Position numbers and translations under genes: made by a program
Shown: positions 551 through 51,836 of the stretch, piece by piece
Numbering within the stretch: the stretch's first letter is position 1
Layout: each line of letters opens with the position of its first letter
NCBI GenBank assembly: GCA_963805855.1
Contig: CAWDVW010000007.1
Coordinates: forward strand, 391,457 to 455,456
Direction of reading: 5' to 3'
Source: Candidatus Dadabacteria bacterium
GTDB lineage: Bacteria > Desulfobacterota_D > UBA1144 > Nemesobacterales > CSP1-2
Length of the DNA: 64,000 bases
Notes under the pieces: generated by a model
What the model was told of the DNA's origin: nothing
The model's input: the letters and a program-made list of their open reading frames with translations, nothing else
Database searches by the model: none

Positions 551-578
551 GTAGGGAACGCATATATGCGTTCCCTAC
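551..578. repeat. Perfect 28-bp palindrome GTAGGGAACGCATATATGCGTTCCCTAC (REP-like hairpin, 12-bp stem and 4-nt loop), copy 1
   Basis: Read directly in the sequence. The identical sequence recurs at 13642-13669. Variants occur at 32416-32443 (loop GATC) and 7699-7748 (loop replaced by a 26-nt insert). It lies between the gloB stop and the metH start. Confidence 0.9.
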
Positions 579-641: not shown

Positions 642-3600
642 ATGGATCAGAAGCTGGAAACGGAAAAATTCAAAATTCTTCGTCAATTGCTCAGAGAGCG
701 CATCCTCATTATGGATGGCGCAATGGGGACCATGATCCAATCTTACAAACTTGACGAGGCGGATTTTAGAGGTGGAAGATTCAAGGATCATCAGAAGGAC
801 CTGAAGGGCAATAACGACATCTTATGCCTTACAAAACCGGATTTGGTCGAAAAAATACACAGTCAATACCTTGATGCCGGAGCGACAATTATTGAAACGA
901 ACTCATTTAACAGCACCGGAATCTCGCAGTCTGATTATGGGCTTGAAGATATTGTCTATGAGCTCAATAAAGAAGCGGCGAGAATTGCGAGAAAAGCCAT
1001 AGATGAATTCTCCGCGCAAAATCGGGGGCTGAACTGTTTTGTAGCCGGGGCCCTGGGGCCGACAAACAAGACGGCTTCTATGTCTCCGGATGTAAACAAT
1101 CCGGCGTACAGGAATATCACATTCGGTGAACTTTCCGATGCATATTATGAACAAATCAGGGGTCTTGTTGAGGGAGGTGTTGATATCTTACTGGCGGAGA
1201 CTGTATTCGACACGCTAAATGTAAAGGCGGTTATTTTCGCGATTGAAAGGTTCTTTGATGAGCATCATTTTAGATTGCCGGTGATGATTTCGGTGACTAT
1301 TACGGATGCGTCCGGCAGGACCCTTTCAGGACAGACCGTTGAAGCGTTTTGGAACTCAGTCAGGCATGCCAGGCCTCTTTCCGTCGGGATAAACTGTTCA
1401 TTAGGTGCTAAAGAAATGCGTCCGTATATGGATGAGTTGTCCGCTATCGTAGATTGCTACACAAGTTGCTATCCGAATGCCGGACTCCCGAATCCCTTGA
1501 GCGAAACAGGATACGATCAAAGCCCCGAAGAGACCTCCACATTCCTTGAGGAGTTTGCAAAAAGTGGGTTTGTAAATATCGTTGGAGGATGTTGTGGCAC
1601 CACACCGGATCATATTAGTGCAATAGCAACAAAAATCAGGGACATTCCTCCTCGAAAAATACCGATAATCCCTCCCGCTACCCGTCTCAGCGGGTTAGAA
1701 CCCCTGAACATAGTAGAGGATCCGGCTCCATTCGTGTTGATAGGAGAGCGGACAAACGTTACCGGATCTCCACAATTTGCTAACCTCATCAAGGCCGACA
1801 GGTTTGAAGATGCTCTCGGAGTTGCCAAACAACAGGTGGAAAACGGTGCGAATATTCTTGACGTCAACTTTGACGAGGCGTTGCTGGATAGCGGCGCCTG
1901 TATGATACGCTTCCTTAATCTGATCGCGTCCGAACCCGAAATCTCAAAGATTCCTATCATGATAGATAGCTCGAAGTGGTCGGTGATAGAGGCCGGACTT
2001 CAATGCGTACAGGGCAAATGCATAGTCAACTCGATCAGCCTAAAGGAAGGTGAGGAAAAATTTCTGGAACAAGCACGGCTCGTCATGCGTTACGGCGCGG
2101 CTACGATTGTTATGGCATTTGATGAGAAAGGACAGGCTGCCGATAAAAAGGACAAGGTACGAATTTGTCAACGCGCCTACAAGCTCTTAACTGAAAAGGC
2201 AGGGATGGATCCTACGGATATAATCTTCGATCCAAATATCCTGACTGTTGCGACGGGAATTGAAGAGCACAACAACTACGCAGTCGATTTCATCGAATCC
2301 CTCGGAGAAATAAAGGCCACATGCCCAGGGGCCCGCACCAGCGGAGGTGTCAGTAATATATCTTTCTCGTTCCGCGGTAACAATCTAGTCAGGGAGGCCA
2401 TGCACTCTGCCTTTTTGTATCATGCCATAAACGCTGGCCTTGACATGGCGATCGTGAATGCAGGAATGCTAGCAGTCTATGAGGAGATCGACAAAGAGCT
2501 TCTTGAGATGGTCGAAGACGTACTCTTGAACAGGAGAACGGATGGTACCGAGCGACTCGTTGAATACGCGGAGAAAATTAGGGGTACAGAAAAAGCAAGG
2601 CTGAAAGACGAAGAGTCGTGGCGAAAGGGAAGTGTTAAGGAACGGCTATCGCACTCACTCGTTAAAGGAATAGTAGACTTTATTGAGGAGGATACCGAAG
2701 AGGCGCGTACGAAATACGAAAAGCCACTTGACGTTATTGAAGGTCCTCTCATGGACGGTATGAAGATCGTTGGGGAACTATTCGGAGAGGGCAAAATGTT
2801 TCTGCCCCAGGTGGTCAAGAGCGCGAGGGTAATGAAGAAAGCAGTTGCATATCTAGAACCCTTCATGGAGGCCGAAAAGAGAAACGCTAATGATCCCAGA
2901 GCTAAGGGAAAGTTTGTGATCGCAACTGTGAGGGGAGACGTACACGACATCGGGAAGAACATTGTATCGGTTGTCCTGGGTTGTAATAATTACGAGGTAA
3001 TAGATCTCGGTGTGATGGTACCGTGCGATAAAATCCTTCAAACGGCCAAAGAGGTAAATGCCAATATAATTGGAATGAGCGGCTTGATAACACCGTCTCT
3101 TGATGAAATGATCCACAATGCAAAAGAGATGGAGAGGAATGGTTTCGAGGTGCCGCTACTCATAGGGGGTGCTACCACCAGTGACGCACATACAGCTATC
3201 AAGATTGCCCCAAATTATAGTGGACCTACAATACATGTTCTGGACGCATCATTGGTGGTAGGAGTATGCAGCAATCTGATGAATCCGGATAAGCGTAAAG
3301 TCCTTGAAGCAGAAACCATTGCAAAACAAAAGGCAACCAGAGAACAATATGCTGCACTATCCCATAAGAAGCATTTCATACCCATTGATGAAGCCCGTCG
3401 AGAGAAATTCAAAACCAATTGGCAAGACATTCACATAGACGTGCCTAAAAGGCTGCGAATCGAGATATCGAAGGATATACCACTCGAAGAAGTAGTACCC
3501 TATATCGACTGGACTCCGTTCTTCTGGGTATGGGATCTAAAGGGAGTCTATCCGAAGATATTCGAGCATAAAAAGTGGGGGGAGCAGGCGCGGGCTCTTT

Positions 3601-5836: not shown

Positions 5837-6277
5837 ATGAAGACTGCAGGATTAGCCTTACTCGTAGCATCAATATGGGGCATTACGCCAATATTTGAAA
5901 AACTAAGTTTGGAAAGGGCTTCCCCTCTTACCGTGATAACGTTGCGTTTTATATTTACGGCTACGTGTTTTGGCGTTTATTCGGCCATAACGGGAGGGTA
6001 TAAGGATTTCGGCTCTTTAGACGGGAAAACTCTACTCTACATCATTCTTGCCGCCGTTTTCGGCGGCATTATTGGTCTACTCATATTTTTCACCGCGCTC
6101 AAGCAGGATTTTACCACGAAGATAGTACCTATAGCTGCTACTTTCCCACTGTTTACCGCCCTCTATGCCTTTATGTTCCTCAACGAGCATATCTCATCTC
6201 CGAGGCTTGTCGGAATTATCCTCATAGTAATTGGATTGATTCTAGTAAATTGGAATAGCCTTAGCTATTCGGATTAG
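5837..6277 (+). CDS. Small EamA/DMT-family membrane protein (single EamA repeat, about 4 TM)
   Basis: 146 aa, strongly hydrophobic, with EamA-like glycine-rich helices. A good SD GGAGGA lies 5 nt upstream. Confidence 0.6.
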   Translation: MKTAGLALLVASIWGITPIFEKLSLERASPLTVITLRFIFTATCFGVYSAITGGYKDFGSLDGKTLLYIILAAVFGGIIGLLIFFTALKQDFTTKIVPIAATFPLFTALYAFMFLNEHISSPRLVGIILIVIGLILVNWNSLSYSD

Positions 6278-6468
6278 TCATGTTTTTTAGTTTTTCCAAT
6301 ACGAGTAAAGAGTACGAACGCCATGGCCGGTCTTTTCGAGGAATCTCTCATAGCAAATTGAACAGTATCTAATTTCCAGCCCTTATTAACCCACGTATTT
6401 ATCACAGCTTCCAGGTCCTCTGCCGTCACGGTTGCTAATTCTACCACCTTGTAAGTAGTCTTTGTCAT
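6274..6468 (-). CDS. Small DUF4177-like protein
   Basis: 64 aa, [11 protein letters not shown]...KGWKL pattern. It overlaps hemB by 4 nt (translationally coupled). Confidence 0.5.
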
Positions 6469-7472
6469 TGCGCGTGCTTGGAAGAGCCCAATAATCTTGC
6501 GGCTTCCTTGGCAAAATAGGAAATAATGATATCTGCCCCCGCTCTCTTTATGCTAGTTAACATCTCCATAACCACTAGTTTTTCATCTATCCAACCGAGC
6601 CTGCCTGCAGCCTTAACCATCGAATATTCACCACTGACGTTATAGGCGGCAAGCGGATAGTCGAACTCTTCCCTGGCCGCTCTTATAACATCAAGATATG
6701 ACATTGCGGGTTTCACCATCACGATGTCCGCACCCTCCTCAATGTCGAGGGCAATTTCACGCAAAGCCTCTCTAACGTTGGGCGGATCCATCTGATATTC
6801 TTTCCTGTCGCCAAATTCGGGCGAGGACTTCGCAGCCTCTCTAAATGGTCCATAGAATGCGGATGCGTATTTCGCTGAATACGACATTATTGCCGTATCA
6901 ATTAAACCATTCTCGTCCAGTGCGCTTCTAATAGCTCCAACACGGCCGTCCATCATGTCAGACGGGGCGACAATATCAGCCCCAGCCCGTGCATGCGATA
7001 ATGCGATCTGTCCCAGATACTCGAGTGTTTCATCGTTATCCACTTTACCCCCTCTGATTATCCCGCAATGGCCGTGACTGGTATATCCACACATGCAAAT
7101 GTCGGTTATTAGCACGATGCTATCAAACCTCTCCCTTATTTCCCTTAACGCCCTCTGGATAATGCCGTTTTCATCGTAAGCCTCCGATCCCAATTCATCT
7201 TTCAACTCAGGAACCCCAAACAAAAGGATCGCCTTAATTCCAAGTTCCTTTAACTGTTTTATCTCCTTTATTGCATTGTCTATTGACTGTCTGAATATTC
7301 CCGGCATAGAGGTAATCTCCTCTTTAAATCTCTTACCGGGAGCGACGAACATCGGATAGACGAAATCATCCACGCTTAATTTAGTCTCACAAACCATTTC
7401 ACGGATGTGTTTATTTTTCCGCAGTCTTCTTGGACGATAATCAGGGAAGTGCATATTAAATCTGATTCTCAA
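6465..7472 (-). CDS. hemB: Porphobilinogen synthase (delta-aminolevulinate dehydratase)
   Basis: RPRRLR N-terminal motif, Zn-binding Cys cluster [14 protein letters not shown], and the active-site region VMVKPA.... Confidence 0.93.
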
Positions 7473-7698
7473 ATAATCTTATTTTAGATTTCAATATAAC
7501 AAGTTTTTATATTTATGAAAAGGCTTGTATGCGATAAATTAGTCAAGCAATCGCAAAAACAGATTGCCCCCATCACCACCCCGAGTGAAATAGTCCTGTA
7601 ATATTTTCGTTGCACCTGTTCCCGCAATTGTAGATGTTAGATACTGCGAGGATAGTCCCTTAGGTGCTAAATGGGCCTTCAAAAATGCCGACGAATTC

Positions 7699-7748
7699 GT
7701 AGGGAACGCATCCTTCGACCGAGCTCAGGACAGGTCTGCGTTCCCTAC
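7699..7748. repeat. Palindrome copy with a nested insert: GTAGGGAACGCA-[TCCTTCGACCGAGCTCAGGACAGGTC]-TGCGTTCCCTAC
   Basis: Both palindrome arms are intact. The 4-nt loop is replaced by a 26-nt module that also occurs at 13286-13307 and 51556-51578. Confidence 0.85.
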
Positions 7749-7768: not shown

Positions 7769-7837
7769 TTGGTAACGCTCTGCTAATGTTAAAGGAGGTT
7801 GCTTCGACCGACAAAGTCAGTCTCGCAATGACATGAG
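7769..7837 (-). repeat. Element-1 repeat copy (TGTCATTGCGAGA...CGAAGCAACCTCC...CATTAGCAGAGCG), reverse orientation, adjacent to the palindrome
   Basis: The reverse complement aligns with copies at 29577-29632, 30048-30100, 30133-30200 and 32464-32530. Confidence 0.8.
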
Positions 7838-13276: not shown

Positions 13277-13334
13277 GAACACATATCCTTCGACTACGCT
13301 CAGGACAGGTATGCGTTCCCAGGTTTTGTTTTTC
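13277..13334 (+). terminator. Rho-independent terminator for pyc, built from a degenerate palindrome/insert repeat copy
   Basis: Stem GGAACACATATCC ... GGTATGCGTTCC around a loop containing TCCTTCGACTACGCTCAGGACAG. It is followed by CAGGTTTTGTTTTTC, 14 nt after the stop codon. Confidence 0.6.
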
Positions 13335-13641: not shown

Positions 13642-13669
13642 GTAGGGAACGCATATATGCGTTCCCTAC
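13642..13669. repeat. Perfect 28-bp palindrome GTAGGGAACGCATATATGCGTTCCCTAC, copy identical to 551-578
   Basis: Exact match. It lies between the convergent pyc and ICMT-methyltransferase genes and is a candidate bidirectional terminator hairpin. Confidence 0.9.
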
Positions 13670-28302: not shown

Positions 28303-29451
28303 TCATTCCCCGCCGGCATTTAATTTTATTGTTTCTATAAGAATCTCTGCGGCTCGATAAAATTCCTCTAACACAAGGTATTCATTGACGGTATGAAGCT
28401 CATACATTCCGGTACCCAGGTTAGCGCATTCGATACCCATTTGATTGAAAAAGTTGGCGTCGCAACCTCCACCGCTGGTATGGTAGTTTATCTTATGTCC
28501 AAGGTCCTTAACTGCCCTGTCAATTATCTTTACAATCCTCGAATCTTCAGGAACATCCATCTTGTCGTAACTTCTTTCAAAAACCTCCTCGACACTGGCA
28601 GCCTGATTCTGACTATCAAGAACTACCTCGTAGTTTGAGACCGCGTTTCTGATACATTCCATCATGTGATTTTTCTGGGCGACCAGTTTAGCTTCATTGT
28701 GGCTTCTGACCTCGCCTACGATTTTCACAAAATTGGGAACTATGTTTGTAGCGATACCACCCTTTATTACTCCGATATTAGCCGTGGTTTCGTGATCTAT
28801 TCTACCAAGCTTCATTTTAGATATTGACTCGCTTGCAATCTTTATAGCATTAATACCGTTTTCCGGACATAAACCTGCGTGAGCTTCGAGACCGTGTACG
28901 TGGAATTCCAGCCTCTCAGCAGACGGGCATCTGAGTACGAGGCGAGAAGGAGAGCTGCTGTCGAGAACTATTCCGTACCTCGAGGTGAATTTTGATATGT
29001 CCATATGCTTTGCGCCCAGAAGGCCTATTTCCTCGCATATAGTAAACGCGACCTCTATATCTCCATGCGGGATATCCCGCTGCCTCAGGGTCCGCAGCGC
29101 TTCGACTATTACGGCTATGCCGCTCTTATCATCGCTTCCGAGAACCGTAGTACCATCGCTCTTAATAAAACCATTATCAATTCTTGGTTTAATTCCCTCC
29201 CCCGGACCAACGGTATCCATATGGGCAGACAGGAAGAAAGGCTCGATATTTGCTTTATTCCCCTTAATCTTTACAATCAGGTTCCCCGTATTTCCATTAA
29301 CCTTATTGCCCGCGTCGTCGAAAAAGCACTCGGCGCCCAGGTCCTCCATGTCGTGTTTCAATTTTAGTGCAACTTCTCTTTCCTTCCGCGAAAGGCTATC
29401 GATCCTGATCAGATCCAGTACGTATTCGGTCATCCTTTCCTTCTCGATCAT
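28303..29451 (-). CDS. M20-family metallopeptidase (peptidase T / tripeptidase-like)
   Basis: HMDTV metal site, the DDKSGIA motif and an EEIG general-base motif typical of M20. 382 aa. Confidence 0.8.
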   Translation of the reverse strand: MIEKERMTEYVLDLIRIDSLSRKEREVALKLKHDMEDLGAECFFDDAGNKVNGNTGNLIVKIKGNKANIEPFFLSAHMDTVGPGEGIKPRIDNGFIKSDGTTVLGSDDKSGIAVIVEALRTLRQRDIPHGDIEVAFTICEEIGLLGAKHMDISKFTSRYGIVLDSSSPSRLVLRCPSAERLEFHVHGLEAHAGLCPENGINAIKIASESISKMKLGRIDHETTANIGVIKGGIATNIVPNFVKIVGEVRSHNEAKLVAQKNHMMECIRNAVSNYEVVLDSQNQAASVEEVFERSYDKMDVPEDSRIVKIIDRAVKDLGHKINYHTSGGGCDANFFNQMGIECANLGTGMYELHTVNEYLVLEEFYRAAEILIETIKLNAGGE

Positions 29452-29576
29452 TATTTCAGTACTACTCCACTTTTTATGGTTTTTATCAAATCAAGTATAA
29501 CTAATTATTATTTGTCGGTTAAATTCAAATGAATAACCCTTGGGTAGGTTATCAAAACATAAAAACGCCTGAACCG

Positions 29577-29632
29577 TCATTGCGAGAAACGTTGTGCTTC
29601 GAAGCAATATCCTTCGGCATTGGCAGAGCGTT
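29577..29632 (+). repeat. Element-1 repeat copy (GTCATTGCGAGAAACG..TGCTTCGAAGCA..CGAAGCAATATCC..CATTGGCAGAGCGTT)
   Basis: Member of a family of six or more copies. It contains the internal palindrome TGCTTCGAAGCA. Confidence 0.8.
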
Positions 29633-29819
29633 TGATTATCCATTCCATTATAGGATTAACCTAGCAGATTGCTTCGCCAGCCGTTCGCTGTGCTCCGGCT
29701 TAGGCTCGCAATTGTAAATGTTAGATATTTCGTGGACAAAATCCTAACAAGAATAAATTTCCTGGAAATCTGCTTATCCGTCATCCTCGAATGTTTTAAT
29801 CGGGGATCCATTGTTTAAT

Positions 29820-30038
29820 CTTTCATTTTCTTTGTCTTGATACAAAGAAACAAAAATCAAGGGCTTACAAAAAATTAGGAATTATTAAATCAATTCCTCC
29901 AGCTAAAAATATTTAATCCAACCACAACCCCAAATCTTTTTTTAACGCTGGAGGAATTGATTTTGGCAATTTTTTGAATGCCCGTTTAAGAACTAAGATA
30001 CTGTCCCCGAATTACGTAACATCTACAGCAATGACAGG
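29820..30038. repeat. Copy 1 of a ~220-310 bp mosaic intergenic repeat unit (hairpin CTTTGTCTTGATACAAAG; CAAGGGCTTACAAAAAAT; TTTTTAACGCTGGAGGAATTGATTTTGGCAATTTTTTGAATGCCCGTTTAA; ACATCTACAGCAATGACAGG)
   Basis: Same module order as 51525-51836 (219 versus 312 nt, the difference being indels between modules). It contains a 17-bp perfect inverted repeat, AAATCAATTCCTCCAGC at 29887-29903 versus GCTGGAGGAATTGATTT at 29947-29963. Confidence 0.75.
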
Positions 30039-30047
30039 AATATGGCG

Positions 30048-30100
30048 TGTCATCGGGAAAAGGAAACCACGAAGCAATCTCCTCCACCTCTGGCAGAGCA
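30048..30100 (+). repeat. Element-1 repeat copy (degenerate left arm)
   Basis: ..CGAAGCAATCTCCTCCACCTCTGGCAGAGCATT.., same orientation as copies at 29577 and 30133. Confidence 0.7.
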
Positions 30101-30132
30101 TTGTGTTTTAGTTGCGATTAAGGACTTTTTAC

Positions 30133-30200
30133 TGTCATTGCGAGAAATCCCGAGCCAGATCGAAGGGCACGAAGCAATCTCCTAAAACATTGGCAGAGCG
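30133..30200 (+). repeat. Element-1 repeat copy (TGTCATTGCGAGAAATC...CGAAGCAATCTCCTAAAACATTGGCAGAGCG)
   Basis: Best-conserved copy. Together with 29577 and 30048 it forms a same-orientation three-copy cluster in the 818-bp gap upstream of the fetAB 3' end. Confidence 0.8.
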
Positions 30201-30269
30201 TCGCACAACGTGTTTTCAATGTTAGGGGGTCAAGACAATCAACGAATTGGGCGTTTTCCCCACCGGCCA

Positions 30270-31067
30270 TTATAGGGCTTCCTCAATAAGCTGATGATCC
30301 TGCGTGAAGTATCTCCTAAATCTGAGATGCGTAAGTATAAAGGATGAAGAAGCCACAGAGAACGCAATCATATACATTATGATGATCTGATACTTAACTG
30401 CTATAATAGGTGAAACACCCGAGAGGATTTGTCCGGTCATTATTCCTGGGAGAGACACTATTCCCACCACCATCATAGAGTTAATTGTTGGAATCATAGA
30501 AGCCTTCATCGCTGCTTTTATACACGAAGAAGCAGCCTGTTTGGCGGTTGCCCCCAGCGCCAGGTAGGCCTCAATCTCGCTTTTCTTATTCCTAATGTCC
30601 GAGTCAATTCTCTCGACCGCTAATGTGGCGCCATTCATGCTATTTCCGATTACCATACCTGCCAGCGGTATCAGATAATGTGGTTCATACCAGGGTTTTA
30701 TTTGCAGGATGACCTGTGTGACCAGAAAAACGCTGATTCCCGATCCTGTTGTCAGTGCGAAACCTACAAGGTACGGCAACTCCTTAGTGTGCTTTACCTG
30801 TCTTTGAGAAACTGTGATAGCAGCGATTATAATCATTACTGCGATCGTAATAAGGATTATGTACCATCTATCTAAAGCGAAAATGTATTTTAATATATAA
30901 CCTATAGCAACCAGTTGAATCAGGGTTCTCAGCGCCCCGATTGCGAATTCTCTTTCGAGCATCAAGTTTTGCCACCTTGACATTCCGATGGCTACAGAGA
31001 TTAATCCAAGTCCGATGAGAAGATCTATATAGCTTATATTTACAAGCGTGTAATTAAACGCTTCCAT
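30270..31067 (-). CDS. fetB: ABC-transporter permease, FetB/YbbM (UPF0014) family
   Basis: 265-aa multi-TM protein with the conserved LIGLGLISVAI..RTLIQL pattern of the YbbM/FetB family. It sits directly downstream of its ATPase gene. Confidence 0.7.
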   Translation of the reverse strand: MEAFNYTLVNISYIDLLIGLGLISVAIGMSRWQNLMLEREFAIGALRTLIQLVAIGYILKYIFALDRWYIILITIAVMIIIAAITVSQRQVKHTKELPYLVGFALTTGSGISVFLVTQVILQIKPWYEPHYLIPLAGMVIGNSMNGATLAVERIDSDIRNKKSEIEAYLALGATAKQAASSCIKAAMKASMIPTINSMMVVGIVSLPGIMTGQILSGVSPIIAVKYQIIIMYMIAFSVASSSFILTHLRFRRYFTQDHQLIEEAL

Positions 31068-31069
31068 AT

Positions 31070-31780
31070 TTATACAGTAATCCCCTGTGTGTTATGAGTC
31101 CTGAAAAACTCCTCCGATAAACCCTCGTGCAGTATCACGCCGTTATCTATCTGGATGATTTGTCCGCCAAAAAATCTCGCATGGGCGAGTTGATGAGTGA
31201 CCATAATAACCGTGATCCCGATGAGGCTGTTCAACTGACTTATTGACCGTAACAGGCTTATTGCGGAAGTGTGATCCAGGGCAGACGTTGGTTCATCCAA
31301 TAGCAGTACTTCAGGCTTGTTGATGAGCGTTCGTGCTATGCTCAGGCGTTGCTTCTCACCGACAGATAGCTCAGATGCTTTGCGTTCGAGAAAATCGACC
31401 TTGAGTTCAGACAACTTAAGAACATGCTTTATTTCGCTTTCATCAGGAGGGTTCTCAACAATCCCAAGTTCGTAAGGAACCATAAGGTTGTCCCTTACAG
31501 TTCCGTCAAACGTCACAGGAATCTGAAAAACCATTCCGACTTTCTTTCTGAGTTCGATAACCGGAATGTCTAAAATGTTTTGTTCATCAATCAATATATC
31601 TCCGGCAGTTGGATCATCCATCCGGTTCAGAAGCCTGAGGAGCGTTGTCTTGCCTGCTCCTGACGGACCCAGTATGTTGTATTTTTTCCCGGAGTGAAAT
31701 TTGAGATTTATATCCCTTAGTATCGGAATCCCGCTTTTGGACTTGCCAACATCTCTTAGCTCAAATTTTATATTGCTCAC
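31070..31780 (-). CDS. fetA: ABC-transporter ATP-binding protein (FetA-like)
   Basis: Walker A GPSGAGKTT, ABC signature LSVGEKQRLSIAR and Walker B LLLDEPTSALD. Confidence 0.85.
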   Translation of the reverse strand: MSNIKFELRDVGKSKSGIPILRDINLKFHSGKKYNILGPSGAGKTTLLRLLNRMDDPTAGDILIDEQNILDIPVIELRKKVGMVFQIPVTFDGTVRDNLMVPYELGIVENPPDESEIKHVLKLSELKVDFLERKASELSVGEKQRLSIARTLINKPEVLLLDEPTSALDHTSAISLLRSISQLNSLIGITVIMVTHQLAHARFFGGQIIQIDNGVILHEGLSEEFFRTHNTQGITV

Positions 31781-31872
31781 TTAATCTCTTTTTTGAGTAC
31801 AAGACCCAAGGCAAAGAAATTGTCTAACGCTCTTTTAAAAATAATTATTCCCGTGCAACAAAGCCATTTTTA

Positions 31873-32241
31873 ATCTATCAATTGTATGGCTTCATCGAAC
31901 TCTTCTGCCATGCCCGGGTGACCGTGCTTGTACGCAGCTTCTATCCCTTTTATATAAGCCTCTTTCGCTTCTTCCTTCCTGTCCAGCTTCAAGAGAGCCT
32001 CAGCCAGCATCCGGTACGCTGCCCCCTCATCGTCTTTTAACGTGAAATAAACCCTGATTTCATCTACAGCTTCCTTATACTTGCCCGCCTTGAAATATTC
32101 GTTAGCAAGTCCATACCTGTTCAGGGAATTACCTGGATTTTTTTCAACGAGCGCTTTGAAGGTTTCGATTCTATTTGTAATTGTTATTTGTCTCCCGTTT
32201 TCATTTTTTCGGATCGCATTCGAAAGAATAATATATGAATT
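31873..32241 (-). CDS. TPR-like helical-repeat protein ORF lacking a canonical start codon (possible ATT start at 32181, or a frameshifted gene)
   Basis: Open frame of 123 codons by my translation (...NRIETFKALVEKNPGNSLNRYGLANEYFKAGKYKEAVDEIRVYFTLKDDEGAAYRMLAEALLKLDRKEEAKEAYIKGIEAAYKHGHPGMAEEFDEAIQLID*). It is absent from the ORF track because the frame contains no ATG, GTG or TTG before Met at about residue 80. A strong SD GGGAGA sits 9 nt upstream of an in-frame ATT. An out-of-frame ATG (MKTGDK*) lies just upstream. Confidence 0.35.
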
Positions 32242-32415
32242 TCATCCGTTAGTACAAAAATGAATTTAGCCTGCGAGCTCCTTGCTGCCTCTACAGGGCT
32301 TCCACTGTCCGATTATTACCTTTCGAGCGCAGCCTAGAGGGTCCTCGCGGGCGACTTCGATTAACTCAGTGCAGGCTCGGCGAAGCAATCCATGATCATT
32401 TGCGTAAATACAATC

Positions 32416-32443
32416 GTAGGGAACGCAGATCTGCGTTCCCTAC
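32416..32443. repeat. Palindrome variant GTAGGGAACGCAGATCTGCGTTCCCTAC (loop GATC)
   Basis: The arms are identical to the copies at 551 and 13642; only the loop differs. It is followed by ACATTT...TTGGTAAC and an Element-1 copy, the same arrangement as at 7699-7837. Confidence 0.9.
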
Positions 32444-32463: not shown

Positions 32464-32530
32464 TTGGTAACACTCTGCCTAGCGTGGAGTAGATTGCTTC
32501 GGAAAAAGCGTTTCTCGCAATGACAGTAAA
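32464..32530 (-). repeat. Element-1 repeat copy (reverse orientation), followed by a partial second copy at 32553-32595
   Basis: The reverse complement is CTGTCATTGCGAGAAACGC...CGAAGCAATCTACTCC...GGCAGAGTGTTACCAA. The partial copy is CAATGCTCTGCTAATGTTGAAGGAGAATGCTTC. Confidence 0.8.
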
Positions 32531-32757
32531 AAATATTCAATGGTAGCGGGTGGGCAATGCTCTGCTAATGTTGAAGGAGAATGCTTCAGGACTTTCTCAG
32601 TCCCTCCCAGCGCCGGGAAATTAAGAATTGACACAGTTGCATCTCCGATAGGTATGCGTTACGCTAAATGGATCGATAATGATTTTATGAAATAAGCTAT
32701 ACTCCTTCCGAGTAAAAATATATGATTTAAGAATTTAATTATAATTCATAAAACAAG

Positions 32758-51360: not shown

Positions 51361-51524
51361 AGAATTGATATTTTACATATCGCCTGTAGAAACGTAAATA
51401 TCATTTCTCGGTGGCGAGGGAGAATATTAGGTTTAATATGAGTGGTGATATCACCGTAGACGTTAGATCTTTGGGGGGCTAGAATCTATAGGTATTTATT
51501 TCAAATTAACCATAACTTTTACAA

Positions 51525-51836
51525 TATTTACTTTGTCTTGATGCAAAGTAACAACCCTTCGACTGTGCTCAGGACAAGGGCTAACAAAAAATGCTTGCGT
51601 ATCGAGCGAATGCGAGATATCAATTGCTAAAATATTTAATTAGTTCTCTCAGTCACTTTGTTCCTTCGAGAGATGACAGTAATGATCGTCACTTTTTTTA
51701 ACGCTTCCGGAATTGATTTTGGTAATTTTTTGAATGCCCATTTAAACCAATTCAATTGGGCGAAGGTTCAGGAAATAGTGCGTTAAAAATTAAGATGTTA
51801 TCCACAAATAATGTGACATCTCCAGCAATGACTGCG
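51525..51836. repeat. Copy 2 of the ~220-310 bp mosaic intergenic repeat unit (CTTTGTCTTGATGCAAAG; CAAGGGCTAACAAAAAAT; TTTTTAACGCTTCCGGAATTGATTTTGGTAATTTTTTGAATGCCCATTTAA; ACATCTCCAGCAATGACTGCGG)
   Basis: Module order and sequence match 29820-30038. It additionally carries the TCCTTCGACTGTGCTCAGGACAAGG module seen inside the palindrome at 7711-7736. Confidence 0.75.

Follow-up and report, generated by a model that had tools for sequence, protein, structure and literature searches.

A gene-free gap of a Candidatus Dadabacteria contig is very probably a nest of two small interspersed repeats, one of them inserted into the other

Introduction

The gene-free gap at positions 29452-30269 of a 64,000-nt stretch of a Candidatus Dadabacteria contig (assembly GCA_963805855.1, contig CAWDVW010000007.1; the whole stretch is hereafter called the window) is occupied mostly by small repeats, namely copies of a three-box hairpin repeat, Element-1 (E1), and a transposable element of the miniature inverted-repeat type (MITE). 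Its closest described relatives in kind comprise repetitive extragenic palindromic (REP) elements, the insertion sequences that target them, and the bacterial MITEs. REP families are species- or genus-specific. Bacterial MITEs include Correia/NEMIS, RUP, ERIC and Nezha, and both the BOX elements of Streptococcus pneumoniae and the small dispersed repeats of cyanobacteria are built of modular short boxes, with tiny units within the hairpins of other repeats. A GTAG head is typical of catalogued REPs (PMC2817692), and the insertion sequences known to target REPs comprise IS1397/ISKpn1, ISPpu9/ISPpu10, ISPa11, ISPsy8 and ISRm19/22 (PMC1525189), ISPpu9 being a member of the IS110 family (PMC12288879). 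Bacterial MITEs are reviewed in PMC3184786.

An earlier reading of the letters alone (the original prediction) had noticed the density of repeat modules in the interval bounded by the M20 peptidase start and the fetB (UPF0014) stop, and had proposed either a repeat nest, that is, an insertion hotspot, or a structured non-coding RNA locus. The results here presented support the first proposal, as a MITE with a 5-bp target-site duplication is inserted in box 1 of an E1 copy. Thus, we consider the gap very probably to be a nest of two small interspersed repeat kinds, E1 and the MITE, laid over ordinary gene-end signals.

Results

The MITE splits a reverse-oriented E1 copy

E1 has three boxes, GTCATTGCGAG-N-CGAAGCAATCTCC-N-TGGCAGAGCGT, and in it box 1 (GTCATTGCGAG) is followed by 10-26 variable nt, box 2 (CGAAGCAATCTCC), 7-8 nt and box 3 (TGGCAGAGCGT). 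Its core, framed by the boxes GTCATTGCGAG and CGAAGCAATC, is a hairpin in which the stem ATTGC/GCAAT leads through an internal loop rich in purines (GA opposite GAA) to a stem-loop that varies; the third box is an addition in this lineage. For the two box patterns, 5 and 7 matches were counted in the window, relative to 0.6-0.7 expected, and none of 100 shuffles reached these counts. Exact GTCATTGCGAG and CGAAGCAATC, 4-34 nt apart, are found at 30134-30179 and, on the minus strand, at 32492-32524, the chance expectation of an exact core in 64 kb being ~1e-6 by our own estimate. Copies of the core with one mismatch stand at 29576-29609 and, on the minus strand, at 7797-7832.

Within the gap four E1 copies were recognised, A, B and C on the plus strand and X on the minus strand. 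The first three had already been described in the original prediction, and their coordinates hold; its count of three, however, omitted the minus-strand copy, which is split by an insertion. Read on the minus strand, E1-X displays ATTGCGAG, the hairpin cctaaGCCG..CGGCtgg, CGAAGCAATCTGC and the tail taggttaatcctataatggaatggataatcaaac, an E1-plus-tail sequence that is also present in the metagenome locus L043. E1-X and E1-B are arranged head-to-head. Three further copies, outside the gap, sit in other long gaps of the window.

The insertion that splits E1-X is a MITE of 315 bp, whose 26-nt terminal inverted repeats pair at 21 of their 26 positions and whose ends, TG...CA, are of the type TGTAGATGTTA / TGTAGATGTTAGATATTTCGTGGACA. 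It is bordered on both sides by GCAAT, the duplication falling in box 1 of E1-X as GTC/ATTGC/GAG (slashes bound the duplicated bases), and excision of the MITE with one GCAAT in silico rebuilds CTCGCAATGAC, the reverse complement of E1 box 1. The element is devoid of coding capacity: its overlapping open reading frames (ORFs) do not exceed 51 aa, and its copies differ by insertions and deletions that are not multiples of three.

Annotated repeats account for 598 of the 818 nt (~73%) of a gap that only a single other gap of the window exceeds in length, the median being 121 nt. In agreement with the original prediction, the gap contains no credible ORF; the 62-aa frame at 29529-29717 exists, and a Pfam scan of the gap ORFs, this frame included, gave no match.

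Filled and empty sites in relatives

Two relatives, L002 and L003, whose peptidases are 91% and 73% identical to that of the window, respectively, keep the order fetA-fetB-gap-peptidase. Their gaps, of 713 and 785 nt, are also rich in these modules, in a different arrangement. A short, repeat-free gap in related genomes, which the original prediction had named as the sign of a mere hotspot without function, was therefore not what they show; even so, the two relatives speak for a hotspot, since they differ in which modules they contain and in where these stand.

Once its 365-nt MITE is left out, the L002 gap is collinear with window 29440-29633 joined to 30100-30285. The L002 MITE is inserted at GTCATTGC/.../AT-CGAG (slashes bound the insertion), inside the counterpart of E1-C, and since E1-C is intact in the window, the site that is filled in L002 can be seen empty there. 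The insertion of the window, for its part, is found within a 466-nt segment (E1-X, MITE and E1-B) that is absent from L002, the simplest account of this absence being a deletion that would have occurred between the direct repeats E1-A and E1-B. By BLAST, the flanks of window 29667-30036 are collinear with L002, but the segment itself matches it in reverse. This match could be read as a simple flip of the DNA lying between E1 copies in inverted orientation, a reading that was discarded, as the insertion sites in the window and in L002 differ.

In L003 the MITE unit appears in another context, with extra modules, and the remaining gap is not alignable. The gap upstream of fetA also differs by whole modules between the window and L002. 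Finally, L001, an independent Logan assembly of the same strain, is 99.9% identical to window 30009-32440; one of its ends falls in the MITE's right terminal repeat (30009), as expected for a multi-copy repeat, and the other inside a palindrome with a GTAG head.

The MITE family and its anatomy

Metagenome contigs were scanned with a 27-base core of the MITE unit, and 38 loci were found to carry it, their flanks being different save for a few duplicate contigs. Complete copies (n = 17) span 292-460 nt, share the same ends and are 70-93% identical to each other; the window MITE shares 93% identity with that of L002 and 91% with those of L032 and L036, two unrelated loci. By our own count, ~27 of the 38 right flanks correspond to one half of box 1 or the other (GCAATGAC or ATTGCGAG), and as either half can be found there, the MITE inserts in both orientations. 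Exact 5-bp direct repeats border three of the 16 distinct complete copies, those of the window and L043 (GCAAT) and that of L039 (ATTTC/ATTTC), where the presence of ATTTC on both sides is what would be expected if the target's own sequence was duplicated. An exact GCAAT pair is also displayed by L050, outside this set of 16, and the pairs of L036 and L041 are off by one base.

The window holds two full MITE copies and one remnant. The second full copy, at 51455-51824, is orthologous in L020, with the same flanks, gaps collinear end to end and high identity, and the comparison of MITE against neutral sequence between both is uninformative because the whole gap is similarly conserved. The hemB-purK gap contains a full MITE in L049 and only the remnant in the window.

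Regarding its internal organisation, the MITE is modular, two alternative central cassettes being accommodated between the same inner arms, with optional inserts of 20-30 nt inside hairpins. The 219-bp copy of a mosaic unit described in the original prediction is real, as 29825-30035 matches 51526-51832 in blocks, and turns out to be only the shared part of the 315-bp element. In the 9-bp stem hairpin of the core, one pair shows a compensated change in L038/L049 and also in the copy at 51526. A block of ~38 nt, TTCTTTGTCTTGATACAAAGAAACAAAAATCAAGGGC (~29828-29865), is nearly invariant, with isolated substitutions in three of the 16 aligned copies; it lay outside the search pattern and is common to both cassette subfamilies, and the terminal repeats of the same copies are more variable.

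The perfect 17-bp inverted repeat of the original prediction, 29887-29903 versus 29947-29963, is indeed there and its predicted structure is strong (z = -6.6), but it is not a module apart: it lies inside the MITE, within the inner inverted repeat, and is perfect in this copy only. Other copies show 11 matching pairs followed by mismatches in these arms, with CTTCCGG where the window has CTGGAGG. Relative to all other copies, the 3' arm of the window has a run of changes (CTTCCGG to CTGGAGG) by which this arm becomes an exact complement of the 5' arm. Such perfection looks less like a conserved RNA helix than like a quasi-palindrome that template switching has corrected.

Short elements of 284 and 575 nt with MITE terminal repeats and without the core pattern were also observed, at L023 5489-6063, L025 1573-1856 and L041 7903-8186. 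As these other elements share the ends without the core, MITE ends appear to mobilise several non-autonomous families.

Features of the gap and flanking genes

Coordinates are collected in Table 1.

Table 1. Repeats, signals and genes in and around the gap, together with related copies elsewhere in the window.
Feature	Position	Strand	Remarks
M20 peptidase ORF	28303-29451	-	bounds the gap
Promoter-like site TTAACC-17-TATACT	29494-29522	-	~43 nt upstream of peptidase ATG; consensus match only
E1 copy A	29573-29632	+	box 1 GTCATTGCGAG 29576-29586; box 2 CGAAGCAATATCC 29600-29612; box 3 TTGGCAGAGCGT 29620-29631
E1 copy X, distal part	29633-29712	-	box 2 and GCCG/CGGC hairpin within 29663-29712; box 1 cut by MITE
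Target-site duplication, copy 1	29708-29712		GCAAT
MITE, 315 bp	29713-30027	+	terminal inverted repeats; 5-bp duplication GCAAT
MITE left terminal repeat	29713-29738		TGTAAATGTTAGATATTTCGTGGACA
Hairpin with 9-bp stem	29827-29850		TTTCTTTGT/ACAAAGAAA; inside MITE core; fold z = -2.7
Inner inverted repeat of MITE	29861-29876 vs 29968-29983		16 nt, 88%; encloses exchangeable cassette
MITE right terminal repeat	30002-30027		TGTCCCCGAATTACGTAACATCTACA
Target-site duplication, copy 2	30028-30032		GCAAT
E1-X box 1 stub	30028-30038	-	cctGTCATTGC on minus strand; first eight box 1 bases; includes duplication 30028-30032
E1 copy B	30049-30102	+	degenerate box 1 GTCATCGGGA 30049-30058; box 2 30070-30082; box 3 30090-30101
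E1 copy C	30134-30201	+	box 1 (30134-30144) and first 10 nt of box 2 (CGAAGCAATC) exact; box 3 after
UPF0014/FetB ORF	30270-31067	-	ABC ATPase gene (fetA-like) behind fetB
Remnant of one MITE end	7623-7685	+	outside gap
E1 copy	7774-7832	-	outside gap; proper central hairpin ACTGAC-TTT-GTCGGT
E1 copy	32469-32527	-	outside gap; boxes 1 and 2 exact
Degenerate E1	~32551-32610		beside 32469-32527 copy
Second MITE copy, alternative-cassette subfamily	51455-51824	+	outside gap; matches 29825-30035 at 51526-51832

The leader at 29452-29572 is the non-repeat part of the gap on the peptidase side. It contains the promoter-like site of Table 1, which also appears in L002 at 2997-3025 with a TG preceding the -10 hexamer, and is collinear with L002 at high identity (85% over 29440-29633 by BLAST). 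Judging from these hexamers, the site is likely the promoter of the peptidase gene, and the leader is likely the sole sequence of the gap that would serve the neighbouring genes. No terminator was detected on scanning the gap, hence no fetB terminator can be named, and a scan for transfer RNAs and transfer-messenger RNA also gave none. The flanking genes are housekeeping ones, and among the neighbours tested (18 window ORFs scanned) neither a recombinase nor a transposase was found.

Two observations concern the genes themselves. In L003 the peptidase, at 6001-7138, is recovered as two overlapping tblastn pieces (6001-7017 and 6965-7138) with a listed ORF of 333 aa, which may point to a frameshift, or else to an error in sequencing. 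Upstream of fetA, the 977-nt gap includes a coding-like stretch of ~360 nt (~31870-32230, minus strand), highly similar in L002, that ends in a 46-aa TPR-like ORF at 31870-32010; the gene there is probably longer than the listed ORF.

E1 beyond the window and its relation to REPs

Phage contigs were scanned for GTCATTGCGAG-N(4-34)-CGAAGCAATC with both boxes exact (21 specified bases), the resulting listing being a lower bound. The core was found in at least 120 phage contigs and at least 183 copies, for ~1 expected by chance according to our own estimate. Among the matches listed, E1-bearing contigs range from 30 to 72% GC, and many of them have portal, capsid, tail-tube or terminase genes within 1.5 kb of E1; across the 120 listed phage loci no gene other than ordinary structural ones recurs beside it. 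Near-identical canonical E1 is also present in plasmids of Calothrix, Aulosira, Tolypothrix, Methylosinus, Methylocystis and Halomonas, in stretches that carry no annotation, and a canonical variant in four phage records. When the sequence of E1-A was compared with plasmids, a single match at chance level was obtained.

The commonest centre of E1, CGNAG, is a GC-closed GNA triloop; otherwise the stem is longer, with both sides changing together. In the twelve centres of 15 nt, double changes occur at five of six pairs and 90.9% of cells pair, compared with 15-51% when the partner is slid, the covariation score being 0.38 versus 0.10, a value reached by none of 500 shuffles. Across all copies, consecutive pairs average 1.84 versus 0.33 (again 0 of 500 shuffles). 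After Watson-Crick pairs, the most common oppositions are G·A and A·G, and T·G and A·C are seen 5 and 8 times, respectively; such a balance of G-T and A-C mismatches indicates that no single strand is favoured. The central stem-loop whose closing pair joins the G of GAG to the C of CGAA is present in the 7832 copy, in E1-X and in L002:166, and is poor in copies A, B and C. Of the 183 listed copies, 107 are intergenic in sequence that crude ORF calls cover to 88%, and orientation toward the neighbouring genes shows no bias (48 versus 51 among the listed phage copies).

Regarding higher arrangements, the phage contig L100 displays a tandem array of four core units with a 33-nt period (2695-2818), and inverted doublets 10-25 nt apart, usually joined by CCAG...CTGG, are found in L064, L080, L082, L084 and L085, and likewise in L097, L117, L119, L130 and L132, in an architecture reminiscent of REPINs (REP doublets). 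With the E1 core, Rfam gave 0 matches at the gathering score for 14 phage loci and 0 at E<=1 for L090, and a literature search with E1 DNA, RNA and peptide strings returned no relevant paper in the library covered. The internal loop was also compared by hand with hammerhead stem II and with the kink-turn, both of which were rejected, there being no three-way junction and no 3-nt bulge.

Altogether, these features suggest that E1 works as DNA, in the form of a hairpin repeat that behaves like a REP, and that it is conserved over an unusually wide range of taxa. Going further, E1 might be an uncatalogued cross-phylum element of bacteria and phages, its boxes fixed by a trans-acting partner, to which the MITE homes; we put this forward tentatively, as a possibility that we regard as doubtful. 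In such a case the partner could be, for example, a single-strand DNA enzyme or a host factor, and the repeat system would include the module CCTTCGAC-N3-GCTCAGGAC.

This module, of ~20 nt, was observed within loops or stems of other repeats at window 7712-7731, 13287-13306 and 51556-51575, and also inside E1 centres and MITE hairpins of L002, L003, L025 and L050. Exact CCTTCGAC-N3-GCTCAGGAC is found in 92 phage contigs, relative to fewer than 10 by chance (own estimate), and it appears to be a second cosmopolitan module. A separate palindrome family with a GTAG head, GTAGGGAACGC-N6-GCGTTCCCTAC, is represented at window 551-578, 13642-13669 and 32416-32443, and a further member is split (7699-7709 / 7738-7748) by a 28-nt module inserted in its loop. 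Since this family is absent from the phage contigs, it is lineage-specific, unlike E1.

Whether E1 could itself be a true REP, substrate of a REP-associated tyrosine transposase (RAYT, of the Y1 type), and the gap a cluster of the bacterial interspersed mosaic element (BIME) type hit by an insertion element, has to be considered here, and we deem it unlikely. E1 is a short imperfect palindrome, multi-copy, intergenic, clustered and in both orientations, the REPIN-like doublets are frequent in its wider family and strand bias is lacking, but its boxes are identical across phyla and phages, at odds with the narrow host range of REP families. In addition, no Y1 transposase was found among the 18 window ORFs scanned, nor any recurrent gene beside E1 in the 120 listed phage loci, and the GTAG-type palindromes of the window meet the definition of a REP better. 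REPs are documented targets of insertion sequences, as in Pseudomonas and enterobacteria (PMC1525189); E1, nonetheless, begins with GTCATTGC, without the GTAG/GTGG that precedes the palindrome at the 5' side of catalogued REPs (PMC2817692). The REP reading is in any case compatible with a nest of E1 and MITE, because it concerns only how E1 itself spreads.

Other readings of the gap

The original prediction had also contemplated a structured non-coding RNA locus. That the gap encodes one or several such RNAs, with the repeats as their structural domains, is very improbable in our opinion, despite (i) the strong fold of the 17-bp inverted repeat, (ii) the near invariance of the ~38-nt block in 16 MITE copies, and (iii) the covariation of the E1 central stem across its wider family. 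The 17-bp arms are imperfect in every other MITE copy, and Rfam 15, which gave 0 matches for the window at the gathering score, yielded for the gap at E<=5 only weak matches of generic microRNA-precursor hairpins to this inverted repeat. RNAalifold on the 16 MITE copies returned -19.6 kcal/mol and, as covariation term, -0.15; there is hardly any variation in the columns that pair. MITE orientation and position differ, moreover, between the window and L002, the unit is found at many unrelated sites, and E1 shows neither strand bias relative to genes nor an imbalance of mismatches (5 versus 8). Thus, in the absence of an Rfam match and of covariation in the 16 MITE copies, and with an orientation that varies, this second proposal is left unsupported.

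A further alternative envisages the central segment as an invertible DNA switch that lies between inverted repeats and controls the peptidase gene. Window 29667-30036 is indeed opposite in L002 relative to the collinear flanks, the segment ends are inverted, and outward promoter-like hexamers are found at the left end of the MITE (TTGTCC-17-TACAAT) and at its right end (TTGGCA-18-TAAAAT, in L002). The junctions, however, are different, the window MITE being in E1-X, which is absent from L002, and the L002 MITE in E1-C, which is intact in the window; the same MITE is found at ~30 other sites, in both orientations relative to E1; no recombinase gene was detected among the neighbours tested; and promoter-like matches are no more numerous than in shuffles. 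Such a switch is thus extremely improbable. The outward hexamers could affect neighbouring genes, but sites of this sort are just as frequent in shuffled sequence. An assembly artefact, by which the metagenome contig would have collapsed or been mis-joined at repeats, can be practically dismissed, since, even if repeats do break assemblies, as the two ends of L001 illustrate, L001 confirms 30009-32440, two independent relatives show the same gene order with comparable module content, and the target-site duplication and split E1 halves fit exactly.

Discussion

The gap is here explained as two layers of small repeats. The first is formed by the four copies of the E1 hairpin repeat, and the second by the non-coding 315-bp MITE, inserted with duplication of 5 bp in box 1 of the reverse-oriented copy. 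A DDE transposase encoded elsewhere in the genome would move the MITE and may recognise E1 box 1, either as sequence or as hairpin, in which case E1 arrays would act as landing pads and E1-bearing gaps as insertion hotspots. The E1 copies may also be recombination substrates and mediate deletions. TG...CA ends with a 5-bp duplication are compatible with several transposase families. They are traits of Tn7/Tn402-like elements; a targeted origin of this kind was rejected for the MITE, as insertions in both orientations relative to E1 do not fit it.

Several observations weigh against this explanation. Four of the ~14 complete MITE copies show inverted flanks, GTCATTGC...GCAATGAC, which a plain model of target duplication leaves unaccounted for; they might stem from recombination between copies inserted in opposite orientations. 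The duplication in L002 is imperfect, AT-C being found in place of ATTGC, with 2 nt lost. No autonomous element with MITE ends was found in the ~0.4 Mb of compared sequence, where the widest spacing of an end pair is 575 nt, and the end pattern is absent from the phage contigs. The E1 copies within the gap fold like shuffled sequence (z from -1.1 to +0.8), and as they are no better than shuffles, they may be decayed. Finally, the near-invariant ~38-nt block, relative to the more variable terminal repeats, hints at a constraint that lies outside the MITE model.

As regards annotation, long empty gaps and short low-complexity ORFs, such as 29529-29717, become recognisable as repeat nests instead of genes or RNAs, and such nests also account for contig breaks in metagenome assemblies. 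With one site filled and its counterpart empty, the locus illustrates cleanly how a miniature transposon targets an 11-nt box within another repeat, and the MITE in E1 shows why certain intergenic gaps gather modules and rearrange between close relatives. The boxes of the E1 hairpin are conserved from AT-rich to GC-rich phages and across phyla; if a shared partner truly exists, a comparative census could identify it.

To our knowledge, the IS110 family lacks terminal repeats such as those of the MITE. Insertion sequences that target REPs resemble the MITE in their specific insertion in a short interspersed palindromic repeat, whose clusters become hotspots and safe landing sites. They differ from it in that the MITE is non-autonomous (315 bp, no transposase), inserts in both orientations, carries 26-nt terminal repeats and generates a 5-bp duplication, its target being E1 and not a GTAG-type REP. 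In common with known bacterial MITEs, the window element is small and non-coding, has terminal inverted repeats and target-site duplications, is dispersed in intergenic copies and is present or absent between relatives, and it may likewise carry outward promoter-like hexamers. On the contrary, it belongs to a new sequence family, found in Thermodesulfobacteriota-like metagenome lineages, is strongly modular, and markedly prefers a single 11-nt target that is itself part of another repeat.

With REPs, BIMEs and REPINs (PMC2817692, PMC3333891, PMC3116915), E1 shares being a short intergenic hairpin repeat in mosaics with other motifs, its occurrence in both orientations and in inverted doublets, and an action at the DNA level rather than as strand-specific RNA. 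It departs from them in the lack of a GTAG/GTGG head and of a RAYT gene among the 18 window ORFs scanned, in boxes that keep every letter over a GC range of 30-72%, in phages as well as in three or more bacterial phyla, and in its purine-rich internal loop (GA opposite GAA) with a GNA triloop as commonest centre. BOX elements and the cyanobacterial repeats are an analogy for the nested mosaic architecture only, no relationship in sequence being claimed. The gap is, in short, an ordinary locus, a further example of a structure of known kind in which the sequence families are new.

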